Source: a virus (taxonomy: Duplodnaviria; Caudoviricetes). Taken from it: a DNA stretch of 64,000 nt. The notes below the pieces were generated by a model. It saw only the letters and a list, made by a program, of their open reading frames with translations. It was not told where the DNA came from and made no database searches. How positions within the stretch are numbered: the first letter of the stretch is position 1; every line of letters starts with the position of its first letter. Where the stretch lies: positions 96,001-160,000 of IMG/VR virus record IMGVR_UViG_3300031993_000012; one strand, written 5' to 3'. This document shows positions 2,316 to 63,999 of this stretch, one piece after another. Position numbers and translations under genes: made by a program.

Positions 2316-2518
2316 GAAGCAACTCAGGAATATTTTACGGAGGTGATTCCATGGAAGATATTATCATTATCAACGATAGTACGACTCCCCAGTCAGAAAT
2401 CGAAAATAATATCAAAGTATGGTTAGGATAAAACCATACAATGATTAATGAAAAAACTTCACAATTCATTGAGTAATTGTTCATACGTTATAAACCCATT
2501 CCAACCTGAGAATGCTTC
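2316..2518 (+). ncRNA. fold-back RNA cassette copy 1 enclosing a mini-ORF
   Basis: 5' arm GAAGCA-A-CTCAGG pairs with 3' arm CCTGAG-AA-TGCTTC; core 2450-2501 is 50/52 identical to 19474-19524. Confidence 0.65.
2351..2431 (+). CDS. 26-aa peptide MEDIIIINDSTTPQSEIENNIKVWLG
   Basis: GGAGGTGA RBS; 19/26 identical to peptide at 19378-19458 with many synonymous codon changes. Confidence 0.75.
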   Translation: MEDIIIINDSTTPQSEIENNIKVWLG

Positions 2519-14647: not shown

Positions 14648-15769
14648 ATGGTTAAAGAACGTTTATGGGTAAAATTAGAATACCCGGATGTAATGAAAGA
14701 CACTTATATGATATCGAATCTTGGTGAAATCAAGAAGATTGATATCGATAAAGTCATCGATTTGTATCACGCTAATAATGGTGTTGAATATGCATTGTTA
14801 TTTGTTGATCCAGATGCACGTAGACGCAACTGTACTAAATATCCGAAACCGAAGAAATTATTCAGATTAGAATTATTAGTAGCTGTGACATTTGTTGAAC
14901 GTGATATGTCATTGGTCGACAAACCTTTGGACATAATGCATATCAATGGTGATAGTAGAGATTGTTCAGCAACGAATCTCAAATGGATTGAAGATGTTGA
15001 AGAATGGCGTGATATTAAGATCAAAGGTGTTATACCAAATGCATACCAAGTTAGCAGCTACGGCAGAATCAGAAACACCGCAAATGGTGAAGTGTTGAAT
15101 ACCAGATATGGTGGAGATGGTTACAGATTGATCTCATTGAAACTTACCGAAAGAACCGCAGCTGGATATGATTGGAAACCATTTAGAATTAATCGTTTGG
15201 TTGCAGAAACATGGTATGGTGAAAATCCGGGAAAAGATGTTAATCATATCGATAGTGATCATTGTAATGATCATTGGAAGAATGTTGAATTTACGACACG
15301 CTCAGAAAACCTTCGTCACGCAGTAGCGGCTGGTAATGTTTCAGCATTACCCGACGATGTTCTCCAGGATATATTTGAAGATTTAAAAAAGACAAATTCC
15401 CCGACTGAGACATACAGAAACATGTGTGAGATCCATCCGATATTACGTAAATATTCAATAGATAATGTGCAAGCTGTGAAACGTGGTTTCTATAATCATC
15501 GTCTTGGATTACCCGATGATTTCAGATTAGCTCCATGTAGACAAACCATTAGTGTTGAAGAAATGGATTTGATTCGTGATAAGTTAATTGAATTCAATGG
15601 TAGTGTCTCGCAGGCATTCAACAGTATTGATACTGAAGAACATCCAAGAATAAAATTCGATACCGTAAAAGATGTGAAACGTCGTCGTTCAGCATATGAG
15701 AAATCAAATAAGTACACGACTGATGATTTTGAACGTATAAGATTGATGTCTCCTAGAGGGAATAATTAA
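14648..15769 (+). CDS. free-standing NUMOD4-HNH homing endonuclease with two tandem units
   Basis: YMISNLG...HINGDSRDCSATNLKW and EEWRDI...YQVSSYGR...HIDSDHCNDHWKNVEFTTRSEN. Confidence 0.85.
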   Translation: MVKERLWVKLEYPDVMKDTYMISNLGEIKKIDIDKVIDLYHANNGVEYALLFVDPDARRRNCTKYPKPKKLFRLELLVAVTFVERDMSLVDKPLDIMHINGDSRDCSATNLKWIEDVEEWRDIKIKGVIPNAYQVSSYGRIRNTANGEVLNTRYGGDGYRLISLKLTERTAAGYDWKPFRINRLVAETWYGENPGKDVNHIDSDHCNDHWKNVEFTTRSENLRHAVAAGNVSALPDDVLQDIFEDLKKTNSPTETYRNMCEIHPILRKYSIDNVQAVKRGFYNHRLGLPDDFRLAPCRQTISVEEMDLIRDKLIEFNGSVSQAFNSIDTEEHPRIKFDTVKDVKRRRSAYEKSNKYTTDDFERIRLMSPRGNN

Positions 15770-17418: not shown

Positions 17419-18093
17419 ATGAGACATAAACTTCATACCATGTTAGAGAAGAAACTTACGGAGTTGGAAACGGCATACTTAGGTTCTATGTTTGAAACAT
17501 TGTTGGAATGTTCAGATGAAAACCAGAGATGGGATTATCATGCCGCTAGAAATGCAGCTCGAATGTATTCTAAGAATCTCGTGAAGAGACTTAGAAAAGA
17601 AAAGGTTATAACTAATTCAGATGAATGGATTTGTAAATATCTGAATTATGCTATTATCGTTCTCCAGAACGCAGGAACTCTTGTTTTCAAGAAACACAAG
17701 ATCGATCGTGTGTTGTTCGATAATCATAACCTTCGAGTGTATAAACCCATGACGGATGAAGAACTGACTGAATGTCGTGAATACTTTGGTTCATCATTCG
17801 TAGATAAAGTAACACAGGATGAGCATCCTGTGTTCAACGCAATGATGGACCATAGTAAGCGCCGTGAAGAACTCCGTGCAAAGCTTCCTGGAATGGAATC
17901 AATGTTCGATGTATGGGACAGAGAACGTGAATGGTTGAATTCAAATTCCAAAACAACTGAATCCAATGTGAATGTTTTGTATGCTGAACCATATGAGGTG
18001 GAAGATGATTTAGTAATATCTGAATCAGCAGCAAAAGCTTTATGTGAAAAGGTTGCAAGAATTCGTAAGCTCCAGGAAAAGAAGCGCTCATAA
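17419..18093 (+). CDS. hypothetical protein
   Basis: AAGGAGTGA RBS. Confidence 0.7.
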   Translation: MRHKLHTMLEKKLTELETAYLGSMFETLLECSDENQRWDYHAARNAARMYSKNLVKRLRKEKVITNSDEWICKYLNYAIIVLQNAGTLVFKKHKIDRVLFDNHNLRVYKPMTDEELTECREYFGSSFVDKVTQDEHPVFNAMMDHSKRREELRAKLPGMESMFDVWDREREWLNSNSKTTESNVNVLYAEPYEVEDDLVISESAAKALCEKVARIRKLQEKKRS

Positions 18094-18109
18094 CGGGCGC
18101 TTCTTTTTT
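18077..18109 (+). terminator. intrinsic terminator
   Basis: AAGAAGCGCTC/GGGCGCTTCTT stem followed by a T-run. Confidence 0.8.
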
Positions 18110-18122
18110 GCTATTTTTTGAC

Positions 18123-18185
18123 ATTCTACATATATTATTCTTATGGATAGATACGAAAGTATTTATTACATTATAAACGAAAGGA
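18123..18185 (+). promoter_or_regulatory. early promoter plus GNRA-hairpin leader, duplicated at 54516-54580
   Basis: TATATTATTCTTATGG then ATAGATAC-GAAA-GTATTTAT then TACATTATAA and GAAAGGA. Confidence 0.65.
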
Positions 18186-18193
18186 TGTTGTTT

Positions 18194-18556
18194 ATGGAAA
18201 TGAACAAACAAATCGCTGATCTTATAACAGATATTGTCACAATAGTCAAAAAGACAACTGACGGAATGCCAGTTGACGAACGTATACGTCGTTTGATGTA
18301 TACATTTATCACTGTAAAAGGTGATCCCAAACTAATTATGTTTGGAGAAACCAATGCCACTATATATGGAATGATGTATGGTATTGATTTAGATTATGCA
18401 AAAAAGATTTACAATAACGATCTCGAATTCACCATACTCCGTCAGTTGGGTCTCGATGAAGTTACGATTGCCAACGATTTAATTCGGTTCGGTGAAAACT
18501 TCCTTGAGGCATCAAAAATGTTGAATGAAAAGGTTGGTGAGATTAATAATGGATGA
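18194..18556 (+). CDS. hypothetical protein
   Basis: GAAAGGA RBS supports start at 18194. Confidence 0.7.
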   Translation: MEMNKQIADLITDIVTIVKKTTDGMPVDERIRRLMYTFITVKGDPKLIMFGETNATIYGMMYGIDLDYAKKIYNNDLEFTILRQLGLDEVTIANDLIRFGENFLEASKMLNEKVGEINNG

Positions 18557-18848
18557 TAAAACATTAGAACAGCTTCAAAATCAACCGTATGAATTAAGAG
18601 TCGCATTATTTGCGACTCTATTTTATATGGTGGATAAAAGTAAAGCATCAATGCCGATCACATTCGAAACCATTCAAATGGCTGCACACATATGTGATAT
18701 TGATGCTGAACTCGGGGCTAGAATGATCAAGGATGGTAAATATAAAACCTTGATCGAAGGATTAAACATTCCACCAGAAACTCAGAAACTGATGACCTTA
18801 GCTGCCTTATCATTATTTCCAATGGATATTGGAGGTGATAAGGAATGA
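18549..18848 (+). CDS. hypothetical protein
   Basis: overlapping operon ORF. Confidence 0.65.
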   Translation: MDDKTLEQLQNQPYELRVALFATLFYMVDKSKASMPITFETIQMAAHICDIDAELGARMIKDGKYKTLIEGLNIPPETQKLMTLAALSLFPMDIGGDKE

Positions 18849-19048
18849 AGTTTTATATTTCATTCTGTGGTTTCGAACCGGGTGGAATTATCATGCCAGT
18901 TGAAGCACGACTTGCACGTGCTGATGATAATCCGGTTGGCATGTGGACATATATCATCGAATCAATCTCATTGCATCAAGCAATTGATATTGCGACGAAT
19001 ATGTATGTTACTGAATTGAATCAAATGTGGGAGGATAGGAATAAATGA
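18845..19048 (+). CDS. hypothetical protein
   Basis: GGAGGTG RBS; ATGA overlap. Confidence 0.65.
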   Translation: MKFYISFCGFEPGGIIMPVEARLARADDNPVGMWTYIIESISLHQAIDIATNMYVTELNQMWEDRNK

Positions 19049-19293
19049 AAATAAATACCGACAATGCTAAAACCACGGGTATTGTTTTAGAGTTGGACCA
19101 TGGAGATATGGATAAGCATTGGTATATTATCCAACAACTGTTGGCGATACCAAATTTAGCAGAGGTTCATTTCCATGGAATAGATGGACGTGAAGCAATG
19201 AAGATTAGAAATTGTATCTCCAGATTTGTGGAGATATCTGATTTTTATGATATGGATATCCAGATTCGCAGGAAAGAATTAAACAACGATTAA
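19045..19293 (+). CDS. hypothetical protein
   Basis: GGAGG RBS; ATGA overlap. Confidence 0.65.
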   Translation: MKINTDNAKTTGIVLELDHGDMDKHWYIIQQLLAIPNLAEVHFHGIDGREAMKIRNCISRFVEISDFYDMDIQIRRKELNND

Positions 19294-19299
19294 TATATG

Positions 19300-19319
19300 T
19301 GCCCCCGTAATCGGGGGCA
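19300..19319. terminator. GC hairpin TGCCCCCG-TAAT-CGGGGGCA
   Basis: perfect inverted repeat after operon end. Confidence 0.65.
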
Positions 19320-19335
19320 TACACATATTAACACC

Positions 19336-19541
19336 ATATGAAAGATAGACAAATATTTTTTGAAAGGAAGTGTTTCCATGGAAGAAATCATTATAATTAA
19401 TGATTCTACTACTTCGCCAGAAGAGTTAGAAGATAACATCCGTGTGTGGTTAGGTTAACCAATGAACGGATACGAAAAAACTTCACAATTCATTGAGAAT
19501 TGGTCATACGTTATAAACCCATTCATGTCTATCTTTCATAT
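19336..19541 (+). ncRNA. fold-back RNA cassette copy 2 enclosing a mini-ORF
   Basis: perfect 16-bp terminal IR ATATGAAAGATAGACA/TGTCTATCTTTCATAT; core shared with copy 1. Confidence 0.7.
19378..19458 (+). CDS. 26-aa peptide MEEIIIINDSTTSPEELEDNIRVWLG
   Basis: GAAAGGAAG RBS; paralog of 2351-2431. Confidence 0.75.
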   Translation: MEEIIIINDSTTSPEELEDNIRVWLG

Positions 19542-19568
19542 ATAAATGAGTTGTGCTTTTTCGTATTA

Positions 19569-21767
19569 TTATACAAATGATTCTGTGACAGTAACATTAC
19601 CTTGATTGATGATATCTTGGATATGAGCATCAACATCATCTGCACGACCTGGGTCGTATGTTGTATTAACCTTTTCATTCTCGATATCAGTTGCTGTCAT
19701 TGACGAGAAATTGTCTTTAATCCATGTAAGATATTTTCTTGTTGCTGGATCAAGATGTTTTTCTTTAAGTGCATTCTCTGCCAATTTAGCAGCAGCGTGA
19801 TTACGTTCTGAATTGGTTGGATATGTGGAGAACATCAATGTGTGAAGTTCTTTCTCCAGAGCAGCCAATGCATTAAGTTTCTGGGTATTACCAACCGTAT
19901 TCGGAGTAAAGTTATTGCTCTTGCTTGTCATGGATTTGATATAGAATACTACAGGGAAATTGTATATACCTGCAAACATATCACACCATGATTCTTCGAA
20001 TGCTTTACCCTTCATATATTCGGCTTCGACTTTGCGATATGTTTTATCGAATGATTTGTTTAATGCATATTGTAAGAAATATGTAAATGTTGACATACTA
20101 AATACTACAGCACCGAAAGCACCTAGACCGGCCACCGTGGGTGCTGCTGATGAAAGACTAATGGCGTATGTTCCAAAACTCATGCCGCTAAGCATTGACG
20201 ATACAAACATTGCAATGCAAGGAGTTTTGTAATCACGATAACGTTTTTGTTCTTTTTTCTTTTTGTCAATGTATGCGGAATATACGAGAATTGTTTTATC
20301 GATTTCATCCTCGGTTTTGATATTGGATGTTTTATCAATAACACTCTTGATATCATTCGGATTATGTAATGATGATATGAGCATCATTTGTTTGATAAAC
20401 ACTTTACGTTTGATTGGATTCTCAACATCGAATATTCCCATATTCTTGATTGCATCACAATACTTGTTCATGATTTCACGTTTACGTTTTGCAGAACGAC
20501 ACGAAACCATCATGGCCATTGTTGTTGCAGTATTAATAATGAATGAATCGGTTTTTGCACGAATCATGTTTGCGATATTATGGAATATCTCATGTAATGA
20601 TACTGCAACAAATGCTTGACCAAACATGGATGGATCTGCGGGTGCATCAGAGAATAATCCATATTCATCAACGACAATAAATATTCCTGCACCATGAAGC
20701 TGGAATCCTTTTGATTTGGATATTGTCAATTGATGTGCATATGTTTCATCTGGATCATATGTGAGTGTACCGGCGTTCTCATATCCTTCATTGTTCTTGA
20801 TGAACTTATATGCGATATGGCAATCGAATTGTTCTTCTAATTCTTTAACGCCTTTATTGTAATTGGGACTGTTAACGAATTTCTGAATATTGATGTCTTT
20901 GGCAAACTTAACCTCTTTCTGTTCAGCACGTGCAGCATTGAAATACTTAACGGCTTTGAGAATGTGTTTGTTATCAAACTTCATGTGTTTGATGTCCTCA
21001 GGTTTTATTTGCCTCGCAGAAACTTTTTTTTTGGACTTCGATTCCTGAATGTATTGATCATTCGGGAATAATTTGAAACCCATTTCTGTGAATATATCAT
21101 ATCCAAGATGTGTTGAATTATTGTATTCTGTAACGAGATCCAATAACTCGGCGGATTCACCAACTGCGTTTGATACGTCGGTTTCTGTATCAGATGATGG
21201 TGCTTCTGCTGATGAATCTTCACCGGCACCATTTGATATATCATCAGCATCGGTGAAATATGTTGACTTTGGTTTCTCTTGAACGAGTTCTTTCTTTTCC
21301 GGAATAACACCATTACGTTTTAACTCTGCGACTTTTAACAACGCAGAACGTGTCATTGGTCGATCAACAATACCTGAATCATATACGAGTATTTCGTCAC
21401 CTTCATCGGTAACATGACGTGAAATGACTGTACCTTTATTTGGGTCACTGGAAGCAACTGCTTCATCGAGTTTGGATTTCTCCATTGCATCATGCTGATA
21501 TGTTGAAAGTTTATCATCGATGCGTTGTGAAATGTAATCAAGAACCGAACCAATTGCACATACAACAGATTGTGTATTTGCGAGTGCATTCTTACGGTTT
21601 GGCGCAATGATTGTATCATTTACAACTTTGATTGTTTGCTGTGAATCATCTTGGAGAATGTGTGATGGTGGAATACAATACATTGCTCCAACTGCTTCTA
21701 ATGCTGTGATGAGATCCGGTGATTCACTGATAACTCTTTCGATTTCTTTTCTATTGAATTTTGGCAT
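19569..21767 (-). CDS. putative virion zinc metallopeptidase-like protein with membrane segments
   Basis: HEIFH (HExxH), downstream EESWCDMFA and YPTNSER; hydrophobic stretches; IQES motif. Confidence 0.6.
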   Translation of the reverse strand: MPKFNRKEIERVISESPDLITALEAVGAMYCIPPSHILQDDSQQTIKVVNDTIIAPNRKNALANTQSVVCAIGSVLDYISQRIDDKLSTYQHDAMEKSKLDEAVASSDPNKGTVISRHVTDEGDEILVYDSGIVDRPMTRSALLKVAELKRNGVIPEKKELVQEKPKSTYFTDADDISNGAGEDSSAEAPSSDTETDVSNAVGESAELLDLVTEYNNSTHLGYDIFTEMGFKLFPNDQYIQESKSKKKVSARQIKPEDIKHMKFDNKHILKAVKYFNAARAEQKEVKFAKDINIQKFVNSPNYNKGVKELEEQFDCHIAYKFIKNNEGYENAGTLTYDPDETYAHQLTISKSKGFQLHGAGIFIVVDEYGLFSDAPADPSMFGQAFVAVSLHEIFHNIANMIRAKTDSFIINTATTMAMMVSCRSAKRKREIMNKYCDAIKNMGIFDVENPIKRKVFIKQMMLISSLHNPNDIKSVIDKTSNIKTEDEIDKTILVYSAYIDKKKKEQKRYRDYKTPCIAMFVSSMLSGMSFGTYAISLSSAAPTVAGLGAFGAVVFSMSTFTYFLQYALNKSFDKTYRKVEAEYMKGKAFEESWCDMFAGIYNFPVVFYIKSMTSKSNNFTPNTVGNTQKLNALAALEKELHTLMFSTYPTNSERNHAAAKLAENALKEKHLDPATRKYLTWIKDNFSSMTATDIENEKVNTTYDPGRADDVDAHIQDIINQGNVTVTESFV

Positions 21768-48366: not shown

Positions 48367-48580
48367 GGAAGAGAACAAAGAAATATTTATCGAAAGGAGC
48401 TGTTTCTCATGGGTGAAATTGTGATATTCCCCGTACCTTCGGGTGAGAGTATCATTTGCGAATAATACAAATGATAATATGAACAGTGGTTGATCCCCAC
48501 GATAAAGAATCGATCGTTCAACGTAATCGCAGTTACGTTGTTCCATTCGCCATAAACCATCGACATCTTTGAACTCTTCC
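48367..48580 (+). ncRNA. fold-back RNA cassette copy 3 (divergent)
   Basis: GGAAGAG-AA-CAAAGA / TCTTTG-AA-CTCTTCC arms; AAATATTT, RBS, mini-ORF, ATAAACCAT near 3' arm. Confidence 0.55.
48409..48465 (+). CDS. 18-aa peptide MGEIVIFPVPSGESIICE
   Basis: GAAAGGAG RBS; same position in the cassette as the other two peptides. Confidence 0.5.
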   Translation: MGEIVIFPVPSGESIICE

Positions 48581-54588: not shown

Positions 54589-55290
54589 ATGGATATTTGT
54601 TCAATGATCAAAGAAACAAAATTGAATGGTGGTGATATATGGATAACTTCAGATCTACACATGCTAAAACGTGGAAAGGATACTCCGAGAATAGTATCAA
54701 ATGATGAAGTTATCAAGAATATTACCAAAGCAGCCAGTACTATGATTACTGAAAATGATATGCTGATCTTTTTAGGAGATTTATTAGATGATACAATCCC
54801 GAGAACGATAGCAGTATGTGAATTTAGTGAATTCACAAAAATGATTAAATGCAAACGTAAGGTGTGGATAAGAGGTAACAATGACATGTTATCTGATAAA
54901 TTGTTGAAGAACAATGGATGGGATGTATGTTATTCAGCAGTCGGAAAATATAATAAACATGTCATTGTATTCTCTCATACATCATTGGAAATGGTCGGTC
55001 GCCCATGTATAAATATTCATGGACATATGCATCGAAACGATAACAATACAATGTATTATTATCATGATCCAATACGGTGTATAAATGTGGCGCCGATTAC
55101 ATGTAAAGGTTATTTTATTAATATAGACGTGATCGATCACATGATCGACGAGAAAGTATGGACGAACAATGTATCAGCATGGTCGGGTGAAGAGAAACCC
55201 GGCATGAGTAAATTTATCTATGAACAAGCAATGGATGAATTCAACGATGACGTGCTTCATGTTGTATTTGGAGGAGGTGAAAAAGAATGA
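54589..55290 (+). CDS. calcineurin-like metallophosphoesterase
   Basis: SDLH, LGD, GNND, SH, HGHMH. Confidence 0.85.
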   Translation: MDICSMIKETKLNGGDIWITSDLHMLKRGKDTPRIVSNDEVIKNITKAASTMITENDMLIFLGDLLDDTIPRTIAVCEFSEFTKMIKCKRKVWIRGNNDMLSDKLLKNNGWDVCYSAVGKYNKHVIVFSHTSLEMVGRPCINIHGHMHRNDNNTMYYYHDPIRCINVAPITCKGYFINIDVIDHMIDEKVWTNNVSAWSGEEKPGMSKFIYEQAMDEFNDDVLHVVFGGGEKE

Positions 55291-55457
55291 TTGATATAAT
55301 ATCAAGAGTTGTTGCAGGAATAATCGCAATTGTGTTTGCAGTATTAACAATATTAGCCGAACAGAAAGTGGAACGTACCAGAAGTGCACGTTCTACAGCA
55401 TCGATGCTTATATCATTATGCGTATATTGTGCATCAATGATTGCAGTATTAGAGTGA
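55287..55457 (+). CDS. 56-aa two-helix membrane protein
   Basis: GGAGGTG RBS; ATGA overlap; MIDIISRVVAGIIAIVFAVLTIL; not in ORF track. Confidence 0.6.
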   Translation: MIDIISRVVAGIIAIVFAVLTILAEQKVERTRSARSTASMLISLCVYCASMIAVLE

Positions 55458-55461
55458 GGAG

Positions 55462-55833
55462 TTGATTAAGATGAACGGATATACTCGAGCATTTTTACAG
55501 ACTATGGTGACAAGCTGGTACAGACCATCACTGAAAGACGACAACGAACGTGGTGCACACTGGTATATGACCGCATTAAGATTGTCGAAGATGATGAATT
55601 CGGTATTAGTACCGGATGATGTTGAAAGAGATGTCGTTGAAAAATTCATTAAAGATGGCCATTCTGTTATGATGAACGACGGAATGACCGCATTAGGTGA
55701 ATGGATAGAAAGTGAGTCAATTAATTTGGGAATTTTCCCAGATGTAGACACGATGAAAGAATTGTGTCGCCAAGCGTACATATATTCCGGAGCAATAATG
55801 GCTCAGATCGATCCTTTAATAATAGAGGAATAA
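55462..55833 (+). CDS. hypothetical protein
   Basis: operon ORF with GAGGAG RBS. Confidence 0.65.
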   Translation: MIKMNGYTRAFLQTMVTSWYRPSLKDDNERGAHWYMTALRLSKMMNSVLVPDDVERDVVEKFIKDGHSVMMNDGMTALGEWIESESINLGIFPDVDTMKELCRQAYIYSGAIMAQIDPLIIEE

Positions 55834-62646: not shown

Positions 62647-63999
62647 TTAATATTCAATGTATGTATATGACGATGGAGACGGATAATTGGTTTTTGTTGT
62701 GTATGCTGTCAATGTTCCTGATGGTACATAAATAATACAATCAGTTGGAACACCTGTCCATGCAGCACTGCTAGAGACAGTCGGTGGAGTTGTTGAAGTA
62801 AATTTGATCGATCCCAATCCATAACAATACTGGAAAGCATAACTACCAATACTAGTAACTCCATCAGGTATTGTAATAGATTGTAATGAAAAACAATACT
62901 GGAAAGCATTACTATCAATACTAGTAGCTCCATCAGGTATTGTTATTGATGTTAATGAAGTACAATTTTGGAAAGTGTATTGACCAATACTAGTAACTCC
63001 ATCAGGTATTGTAATAGATTGTAATGAATAACAACTATTGAAAGCATAATTACCAATACTAGTAACTGAGTTAGGTATTGTAATAGATTGTAATGAATAA
63101 CAATACTGGAAAGCATAACTACCAATACTAGTAACTCCATCAGGAATAGTAATAGATGATAATGAAAAACAATAATTGAAAGCACTCTGACCAATACTAG
63201 TAACTGTATCAGGAATAATGATTGAGGTTAATGATCTACAACTAGCAAAAGCATTACCACCAATACTAGTAACTCCATCAGGTATTGTTACAGATGTCAT
63301 TGAAGAACAATCACTGAAAGCACTACCACTAATACTAGTAACTCCATCAGGTATTGTAATAGATTGTAATGAATAACAACTATTGAAAGCATAATTACCA
63401 ATACTAGTAGCTCCATCAGGTATTGTTATTGATGTTAATGAAGTACAATTTTGGAAAGTGTATTGACCAATACTAGTAACTGAATCAGGTATTGTGATAG
63501 ATTGTAATGAATAACAACCTTGGAAAGCATAATTACCAATACTAGTAACTGAATCAGGTATTGTGATAGATTGTAATGAATAACAATACTGGAATGCTCT
63601 ACCACCAAAACTAACATTATTACCAATCTCAATACTAATCAATGAATTCTGATATACTCTATCATTATTCACATTTGGAGATGAGGATTTCCTAAGTATA
63701 TTAGAATAATAGCTACTATCACCATTCAATGTAATACTACCAGTTGTTACTGAAATGGATATAGTATACTCCCCTGCAGATGTATATTCATGAGGTGTAT
63801 ACACTGTAGAAGTATTTAATGTAACACTCTCAACTGTACTACCATCACCCCAGTCTATTGATACGGTAGTGCCACTACTATTACCAGTCAATCCCAGATA
63901 TGGTTTTAATCTTCCCTCTCCAAGTCTTATGTGTAATCTTGTACTACCATCATCGGTTACATACATCTGACCAATATCAAGTTTTCCATTATTGGTAAC
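62647..63999 (-). CDS. BspA-type leucine-rich-repeat protein, 5'-truncated by window edge
   Basis: 12 copies of the 23-aa AF..C.SL.SITIPD.VTSIG repeat; frame open to window end. Confidence 0.9.
   Translation of the reverse strand, partial: VTNNGKLDIGQMYVTDDGSTRLHIRLGEGRLKPYLGLTGNSSGTTVSIDWGDGSTVESVTLNTSTVYTPHEYTSAGEYTISISVTTGSITLNGDSSYYSNILRKSSSPNVNNDRVYQNSLISIEIGNNVSFGGRAFQYCYSLQSITIPDSVTSIGNYAFQGCYSLQSITIPDSVTSIGQYTFQNCTSLTSITIPDGATSIGNYAFNSCYSLQSITIPDGVTSISGSAFSDCSSMTSVTIPDGVTSIGGNAFASCRSLTSIIIPDTVTSIGQSAFNYCFSLSSITIPDGVTSIGSYAFQYCYSLQSITIPNSVTSIGNYAFNSCYSLQSITIPDGVTSIGQYTFQNCTSLTSITIPDGATSIDSNAFQYCFSLQSITIPDGVTSIGSYAFQYCYGLGSIKFTSTTPPTVSSSAAWTGVPTDCIIYVPSGTLTAYTTKTNYPSPSSYTYIEY

Follow-up and report, generated by a model that had tools for sequence, protein, structure and literature searches.

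Dual-function small RNAs that contain a translated small open reading frame (ORF) are exemplified by Staphylococcus aureus RNAIII, which encodes the 26-residue delta-haemolysin, by SgrS/SgrT and by Bacillus subtilis SR1/SR1P, and leader-peptide attenuators by, for instance, the ilv and thr leaders. In T4-type phages, promoter-early stem-loop (PeSL) cassettes have been described (Arbiol et al. 2010; PMC2839356; PMC4122927) as DNA-level regulatory modules read by the host sigma-70 polymerase, in which a terminator hairpin and an early promoter are repeatedly combined around small accessory ORFs. In the giant phages 201phi2-1 and phiKZ, small RNAs derived from 5' untranslated regions have been defined by premature termination and described as non-coding; these units of less than 250 nt begin at operon transcription starts, and some are conserved between giant phages (PMC11512511).

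Elements of these systems are recognized in the DNA analyzed here, a window of 64,000 nucleotides that forms part of a 182-kb IMG/VR record (G000), 68% complete, which encodes a phiKZ-type prohead protease (Peptidase_S80) and whose metagenome runs come from cattle gut or rumen. At least four cassettes with clamped ends were found in this AR9/phiKZ-like rumen jumbo phage. A first-pass annotation had singled out one of them as copy 2 of a cassette, a label that proved apt since copy 1 was located at 2316-2518, and a third copy of this A type is present in G001, the closest relative in IMG/VR (L007:1461-1669). Copy 2 is a 206-nt unit closed by a perfect 16-bp inverted repeat (19336-19351 / 19526-19541), with the following parts:

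19336-19351, plus strand: 5' arm of the closing helix (P1), from the repeat search, the fold and the duplex energy compared with random pairs
19362-19372, plus strand: ribosome-binding site, purine-rich and partly within a small 4-bp hairpin
19378-19458, plus strand: 26-codon ORF and stop codon, for an acidic peptide with a run of four Ile, from the codon-position pattern between copies
19447-19461, plus strand: hairpin spanning the Trp and stop codons, seen when each of the three A-type copies is folded separately
19486-19502, plus strand: hairpin with a conserved loop, whose stem differs in the G001 copy and still pairs
19505-19519, plus strand: 15-nt 3' signature, common to all four clamped cassettes of G000
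19526-19541, plus strand: 3' arm of the closing helix (P1), from the same evidence as the 5' arm

The closing repeat is as perfect as it had been described, its two 16-nt arms being 100% complementary and separated by 174 nt. Their duplex energy is -20.4 kcal/mol, a value that none of 3000 random 16-mer pairs taken from the same genome at the same spacing reached (mean -3.5, sd 2.4). The 219-nt stretch around the arms folds with -57.6 kcal/mol (z = -5.5), a stability that none of 200 shuffles attained, and retains the closing helix, and folds of copy 2 generally show stable independent hairpins, with no T-run terminator behind the ORF. In the MAFFT alignment of the three A-type copies the helices lie out of register in formal pair counts. 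The helix of copy 2 runs 4 bp further upstream than the position that corresponds to +1 in the other cassettes, which fits a transcript starting further upstream. Also correct was the peptide quoted in the earlier reading, which is the 26-residue product of the ORF; this ORF has a ribosome-binding site. An Rfam search of the whole window gave no match at the gathering score, and blastn against deposited phages gave none either. In copy 2 only, an alternative long-range pairing of 15 bp (19470-19488 with 19551-19566) joins the start of the 3' block to the region of a displaced T-run described below, and could help to end the transcript.

Comparison with the other family members, of which those of G000 are given here, indicates which parts are held in common:

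2316-2518, plus strand: copy 1, in leader position, with an early promoter (+38 bits) and predicted +1 at 2316; the next gene starts at 2591
48367-48580, plus strand: cassette B, with a clamp, a 5' linker like that of copy 2, the signature at 48544-48558 and an 18-codon ORF as cargo
G000:174547-174771, beyond the window: cassette C, clamped and 225 nt long, with a 47-codon ORF, the 3' signature and its own early promoter

Copies 1 and 2 share 76% identity over 173-178 nt, and the order of parts is the same in the three A-type copies: 5' arm, linker, ribosome-binding site, 26-codon ORF, Trp/stop hairpin, conserved-loop hairpin, single-stranded block and 3' arm. Each of these copies has arm sequences of its own, yet 12-16 bp are formed, so that the clamp is maintained while its sequence changes. 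Over the five cassettes examined, the end-to-end duplexes range from -16 to -23 kcal/mol with differing sequences, and again 0 of 3000 random pairs reach them. When both strands of the 182-kb record were searched for the strict 15-nt signature, four matches were obtained, all of them within cassettes (4/4) and 5-9 nt before the 3' arm; the G001 copy also has it, with one extra A. The clamp and the 3' signature are thus common to cassettes with three unrelated ORFs. Copy 2 itself is a mosaic, its 5' linker and ribosome-binding region matching cassette B (82% over 39 nt) and its signature and 3' arm matching cassette C (81% over 32 nt), where changes in one arm are matched in the other and the pairing is kept. 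A hairpin similar to that at 19447-19461 also occurs in cassette C, there in another reading frame.

Searches beyond these cassettes were less productive. A supposed third copy at G000:175581 was discarded, being a 14-nt match to the 3' block that lies within a coding region and is attributed to chance. Scans of IMG/VR with exact motifs and peptide patterns returned G001 as the only relative, a single metagenome scan gave five chance matches with stop codons present and no RNA motif, a peptide profile gave no credible match in five more distant relatives (about 60% identity in a conserved 701-aa protein), and clamp and signature scans of the complete relatives G008 and G009 gave chance matches only. 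Of phage-encoded RNA enzymes, neither RNase III nor RtcB turned up in the record, which says nothing at a completeness of 68%. Two side observations concern repeats and variants: a tandem array of ten 69-nt units occupies window 62765-63685, and run X2, one of the metagenome runs considered below, has a loose end at window 19477 that represents a further cassette variant, with a different ORF end and another stop codon joined to the same 3' block (30 letters visible).

The genomic site of copy 2 differs from those of its relatives in what surrounds it, the relevant features being:

18114-18149, plus strand: nearest AR9-type early promoter upstream of copy 2 (18.0 bits with the position weight matrix, PWM; predicted +1 at 18145)
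19298-19321, no strand assigned: GC-rich hairpin before copy 2 (stem 19298-19307 / 19312-19321, -19.6 kcal/mol)
19327-19556, plus strand: segment present in G000 and absent at the same site of G001 (G001 67380-67520 compared with window 19250-19600)
about 19557-19563, plus strand: displaced T-run of the old terminator, identified from the homologous junction in G001; some 235 nt now separate it from its stem
19569-21767, minus strand: convergent 732-aa gene, product function not assigned, with its stop codon at 19569, 28 nt past copy 2

The promoter at 18114-18149 is directly preceded by a canonical terminator (18075-18109), has a 5'-terminal hairpin at its +1, and heads an operon whose four small ORFs (18143-19293) stop shortly before copy 2. 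The hairpin that follows this operon had been taken for terminator-like; its stem is real, but no T-run stands behind it and the terminator scan did not call it. In G001, its counterpart is a bidirectional terminator, and the homologue of the 82-aa ORF is followed there by this single hairpin with six T and at once by the convergent stop codon. The segment of about 230 nt that G000 has in addition corresponds to the cassette with some 9 nt on its left and 15 nt on its right, and no target-site duplication was seen at the junctions in this comparison. Since the hairpin is left without a T-run and the old T-run now lies behind the cassette, it no longer resembles an intrinsic terminator, and upstream early transcription from the promoter near 18114-18145 can be expected to enter copy 2 by read-through.

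Downstream, the earlier description holds in that only the 3' end of a convergent gene follows. The minus strand is filled up to 24973 by the 732-aa ORF and a 1063-aa ORF, and in the ORF list of the window no plausible plus-strand gene occurs 3' of copy 2 for 5.4 kb. The transcript of the 732-aa gene must traverse the cassette in antisense to reach the hairpin, and the antisense strand of copy 2 folds equally well (-85.5 kcal/mol with flanks). This placement is not peculiar to copy 2: cassette C, which has a canonical terminator and an early promoter, is also followed only by a convergent gene, the stop codon of this 429-aa gene lying 14 nt past the 3' arm. Cassette B is followed after 32 nt by the start of a 401-aa gene. 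Of the five cassettes examined, two, namely copy 2 and cassette C, hence have no co-directional gene behind them, which provides what we consider the strongest support for the unit probably being a product in itself, and given the shared setting of cassette C, stand-alone placement is a normal state of the family. The view that copy 2 is not just a 5' leader consequently gains from several sides, namely the missing downstream gene, the coding signature of the ORF, the perfect clamp, the retention of the unit in three related strains with no frameshift, and the similar placement of cassette C. A leader role for copy 2 was rejected given the 5.4 kb free of plus-strand genes and the lack of a promoter directly upstream.

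As regards transcription, about 25 sites in the record display an AT-alternating motif followed by six bases and then G, and these sites score at least 14 bits with the PWM. This motif is the early (virion RNA polymerase) consensus of Bacillus phage AR9, experimentally mapped with G as +1 (PMC5312081), so that +1 is placed six bases downstream. AR9-type early promoters precede copy 1, cassette C and the G001 copy and are missing at copy 2: the best score upstream of copy 2 is -16 bits, compared with +38 for copy 1 and 24 for cassette C, and a single deviation from the AR9 consensus is enough to abolish an early promoter (PMC5312081). Around copy 2, sigma-70-like promoters occur at chance level only, and the opposite strand there has no promoter motif. 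A near-match to the AR9 late promoter at 19330-19340, whose spacing is one base short and which ends at the G that is +1 in related cassettes, was given no weight, because the motif is not enriched upstream of genes of this phage. The claim that copy 2 stands alone is therefore right for what lies downstream and not supported if a stand-alone transcription unit is meant. Lacking an early promoter, copy 2 probably depends on the upstream operon, and it would most likely be read through as the last cistron of the early operon starting near 18145.

Stems at the 5' terminus stabilise mRNA in Firmicutes, and nearly all predicted early transcripts of this phage start with a stem exactly at +1, usually as a hairpin of 20-30 nt. 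Six early promoters (G000 8769, 17397, 59869, 60584, 121110, which is window 25110, and 168904) are followed by near-identical leaders that open with a hairpin of about 30 nt and form a repeated 5' leader family.

Related strains provided a view of how copy 2 is kept or lost. Contigs from runs X2, X3 and X4, of three other studies, cover 19142-19497 at ~94% identity with 22-23 substitutions; the three or four single-base indels that they contain all lie outside the ORF, and no frameshift affects copy 2. These contigs break at 19497/19498, where copies 1 and 2 become identical. In one X7 contig, 19341 is joined to 19564 through 21 other letters, so that the cassette is missing with a few flanking bases kept; this run also shows ends identical to copy 1. 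The ORF is free of frameshifts in X2-X4, and the cassette is absent from one X7 contig and from the homologous site of G001; it is dispensable in some relatives. In G001, the operon closed by the 82-aa homologue has the only cassette of that genome at its head, 1.3 kb upstream, and at the place of this cassette G000 has a NUMOD4/HNH homing-endonuclease-like ORF (window 14648-15768). The copy 1 site in G001 (54692-55582, L023) shows a terminator, an early promoter and a short 5' hairpin with no cassette, together with an extra ORF of ~300 aa that has no G000 counterpart. Gene content between the terminator-promoter modules differs widely between G000 and G001.

Such differences, which are bounded by modules at the copy 1, HNH and copy 2 sites and extend to the presence or absence in X7, suggest that cassettes move or are exchanged among terminator-promoter modules, as in T4-type PeSLs, whose close relatives likewise differ by insertions, deletions and replacements between modules. 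The coupling of a stem-loop terminator to a strong early promoter, repeated around small accessory ORFs, also characterizes copy 1, cassette C and the cassette of G001; copy 2 retains the hairpin and has lost the promoter part. Unlike PeSLs, the promoters here are of the AR9 virion-polymerase type, and the conserved unit adds a transcribed chassis around the ORF, with a clamp from +1 to the 3' arm and the 3' signature. The small RNAs of 201phi2-1 and phiKZ are matched in size and in the start at operon transcription starts, but the present units contain an ORF predicted to be translated and are clamped from end to end, and copy 2 does not lie at a transcript start. A transposon of the MITE kind with terminal inverted repeats was dismissed, as the arms differ between copies with pairing kept and there is no duplication at the junctions.

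Likeness to attenuators is given by the short ORF with a one-residue run (four Ile) in the structured 5' region of copy 1, cassette B and the G001 copy. On the contrary, no gene that could be attenuated follows copy 2 or cassette C, conservation extends over the entire peptide and not the Ile run alone, and no alternative terminator/antiterminator pair was found in the cassette folds. A type I toxin-antitoxin system was also rejected, the peptide of copy 2 being acidic and without a membrane-spanning stretch, and the opposite strand showing no promoter motif.

Whether the ORF or the RNA is constrained was evaluated by comparing the three DNA copies. Their differences at codon positions 1/2/3 amount to 6/4/15, 8/5/16 and 4/4/14, the third position taking 14-16 of 22-29 differences, and synonymous changes number 7-11 in frame versus 1-4 in either of the remaining frames. 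The protein database contains another two variants of the peptide, both on very short contigs, and the five variants differ by mostly conservative exchanges, with one Trp-to-Gly change among the database variants. On account of this third-position bias, the in-frame synonymous excess and the conservative variants, the 26-codon ORF is, by comparative measures, a real coding sequence; the signature is drawn from comparison between copies and speaks for the family, not for the copy 2 lineage alone. The RNA level nonetheless shows features of its own. Copies 1 and 2 share 96% identity in the 3' block and ~71% in the ORF region, a difference that points to RNA constraint (or gene conversion) and that a pure peptide-gene model leaves unexplained. 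The native codons also give the ORF more structure than synonymous recoding does (z of copy 2, -2.2; of the other copies, -1.4 and -1.0), from which the RNA fold would also appear to be under selection, and the most variable stretch of the peptide coincides with a mid-ORF hairpin found in all three folds. The peptide and the RNA thus both appear constrained, as in dual-function RNAs, with which the cassettes share a structured RNA of at most a few hundred nucleotides and a short ORF, here with comparative coding evidence, next to conserved non-coding parts. They differ from them in having no target pairing found in the phage genome and no sequence or Rfam relation, and in being phage-borne, multi-copy, equipped with swappable ORFs and known from sequence alone.

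Several explanations were weighed against this background. We consider it an even prospect that copy 2 is a working extra micropeptide gene expressed by read-through, with a clamp that stabilises and insulates the message and an acidic peptide that acts as a trans-acting effector. The folded RNA could instead be the trans-acting product, for example by offering a host or phage protein a decoy or docking site, or by base-pairing as a small RNA through the single-stranded 3' signature; in both forms the small ORF would be interchangeable cargo or a second function, which would make it a dual-function RNA. Both forms are held to be rather unlikely. They would account for the sharing of signature and clamp among cassettes with unrelated ORFs, for a 3' block far better conserved than the ORF in copies 1 and 2, for the recurrence of the ORF-end hairpin in another frame of cassette C, for a codon choice that favours structure, and for the overlap of the mid-ORF hairpin with the most variable peptide part. 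Nevertheless, the third-position pattern means that the peptide sequence itself is conserved, no Rfam family is matched, and in the phage genome the 3' block finds no more complementary matches than expected by chance, with about three antisense 12-mers where shuffling gives a mean of 2.6.

Another explanation regards copy 2 as a non-functional passenger: recombination between terminator-promoter modules would have produced it recently, its promoter would have been lost, and it would now be silent or irrelevant and heading for deletion. The missing early promoter, the empty site in G001, the X7 contig whose short remaining flanks look like a deletion scar, and the wide differences in gene content between such modules of G000 and G001 agree with it. 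We judge it improbable all the same, as the clamp pairs at 16 of 16 positions despite divergence from the other copies, the ORF, ribosome-binding site and signature are intact, three strains ~6% divergent carry no frameshift, and, when measured against synonymous variants, no other copy folds as stably as copy 2. A role in cis appears very improbable. Copy 2 might then serve as a structured 3' end for the upstream early operon, as an antisense 3' UTR or terminator region of the 732-aa gene, or in the collision of convergent transcription, for which its position precisely between the stem and the T-run of the terminator common to the two convergent units, and the equally good antisense fold, would be suited. 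For such a role, however, neither the family signature nor an intact ORF preceded by a ribosome-binding site is required, G001 and the strain of run X7 manage without copy 2 at the same junction, and other family members are located at 5' ends.

Under the micropeptide-gene explanation, copy 2 would be a self-contained micro-gene and not a leader, and the cassette may be viewed as a gene in its own right since copy 2 and cassette C have nothing downstream to regulate. Its RNA domain of ~205 nt, with the two ends clamped by the 16-bp helix, would hold the ribosome-binding site, the translated 26-codon ORF, three to four hairpins and the single-stranded 15-nt signature. As the main product, the acidic peptide would exert its effect in trans at an early stage of infection, and the RNA chassis would protect the message and insulate its folding, a stabilising role being proposed for the clamp. 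Copy 2 probably originated by recombination among the terminator-promoter-cassette modules of the phage, landing between a terminator stem and its T-run without keeping a working early promoter, and would be transcribed by read-through from the operon starting near 18145.

More speculatively, and with little confidence, the clamp from +1 and the 15-nt signature might form a portable RNA chassis, loaded with interchangeable micropeptide ORFs by this group of AR9-like rumen phages and recognised by a dedicated factor. What this factor would do is put forward just as tentatively, its role being, for example, excision from longer transcripts, protection, localisation or timed translation. If this were true, the cassette would work wherever it is inserted, also without a promoter at the tail of an operon as in copy 2. 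Annotation usually misses very small phage genes, and here a gene of 26 codons is recognisable through its RNA packaging. Were the chassis a general module for expression or stability in AR9/phiKZ-like Firmicutes phages, it would offer a route to more hidden micropeptides, a candidate portable stabiliser for synthetic constructs, and a defined group of early peptides with which host targets can be probed.
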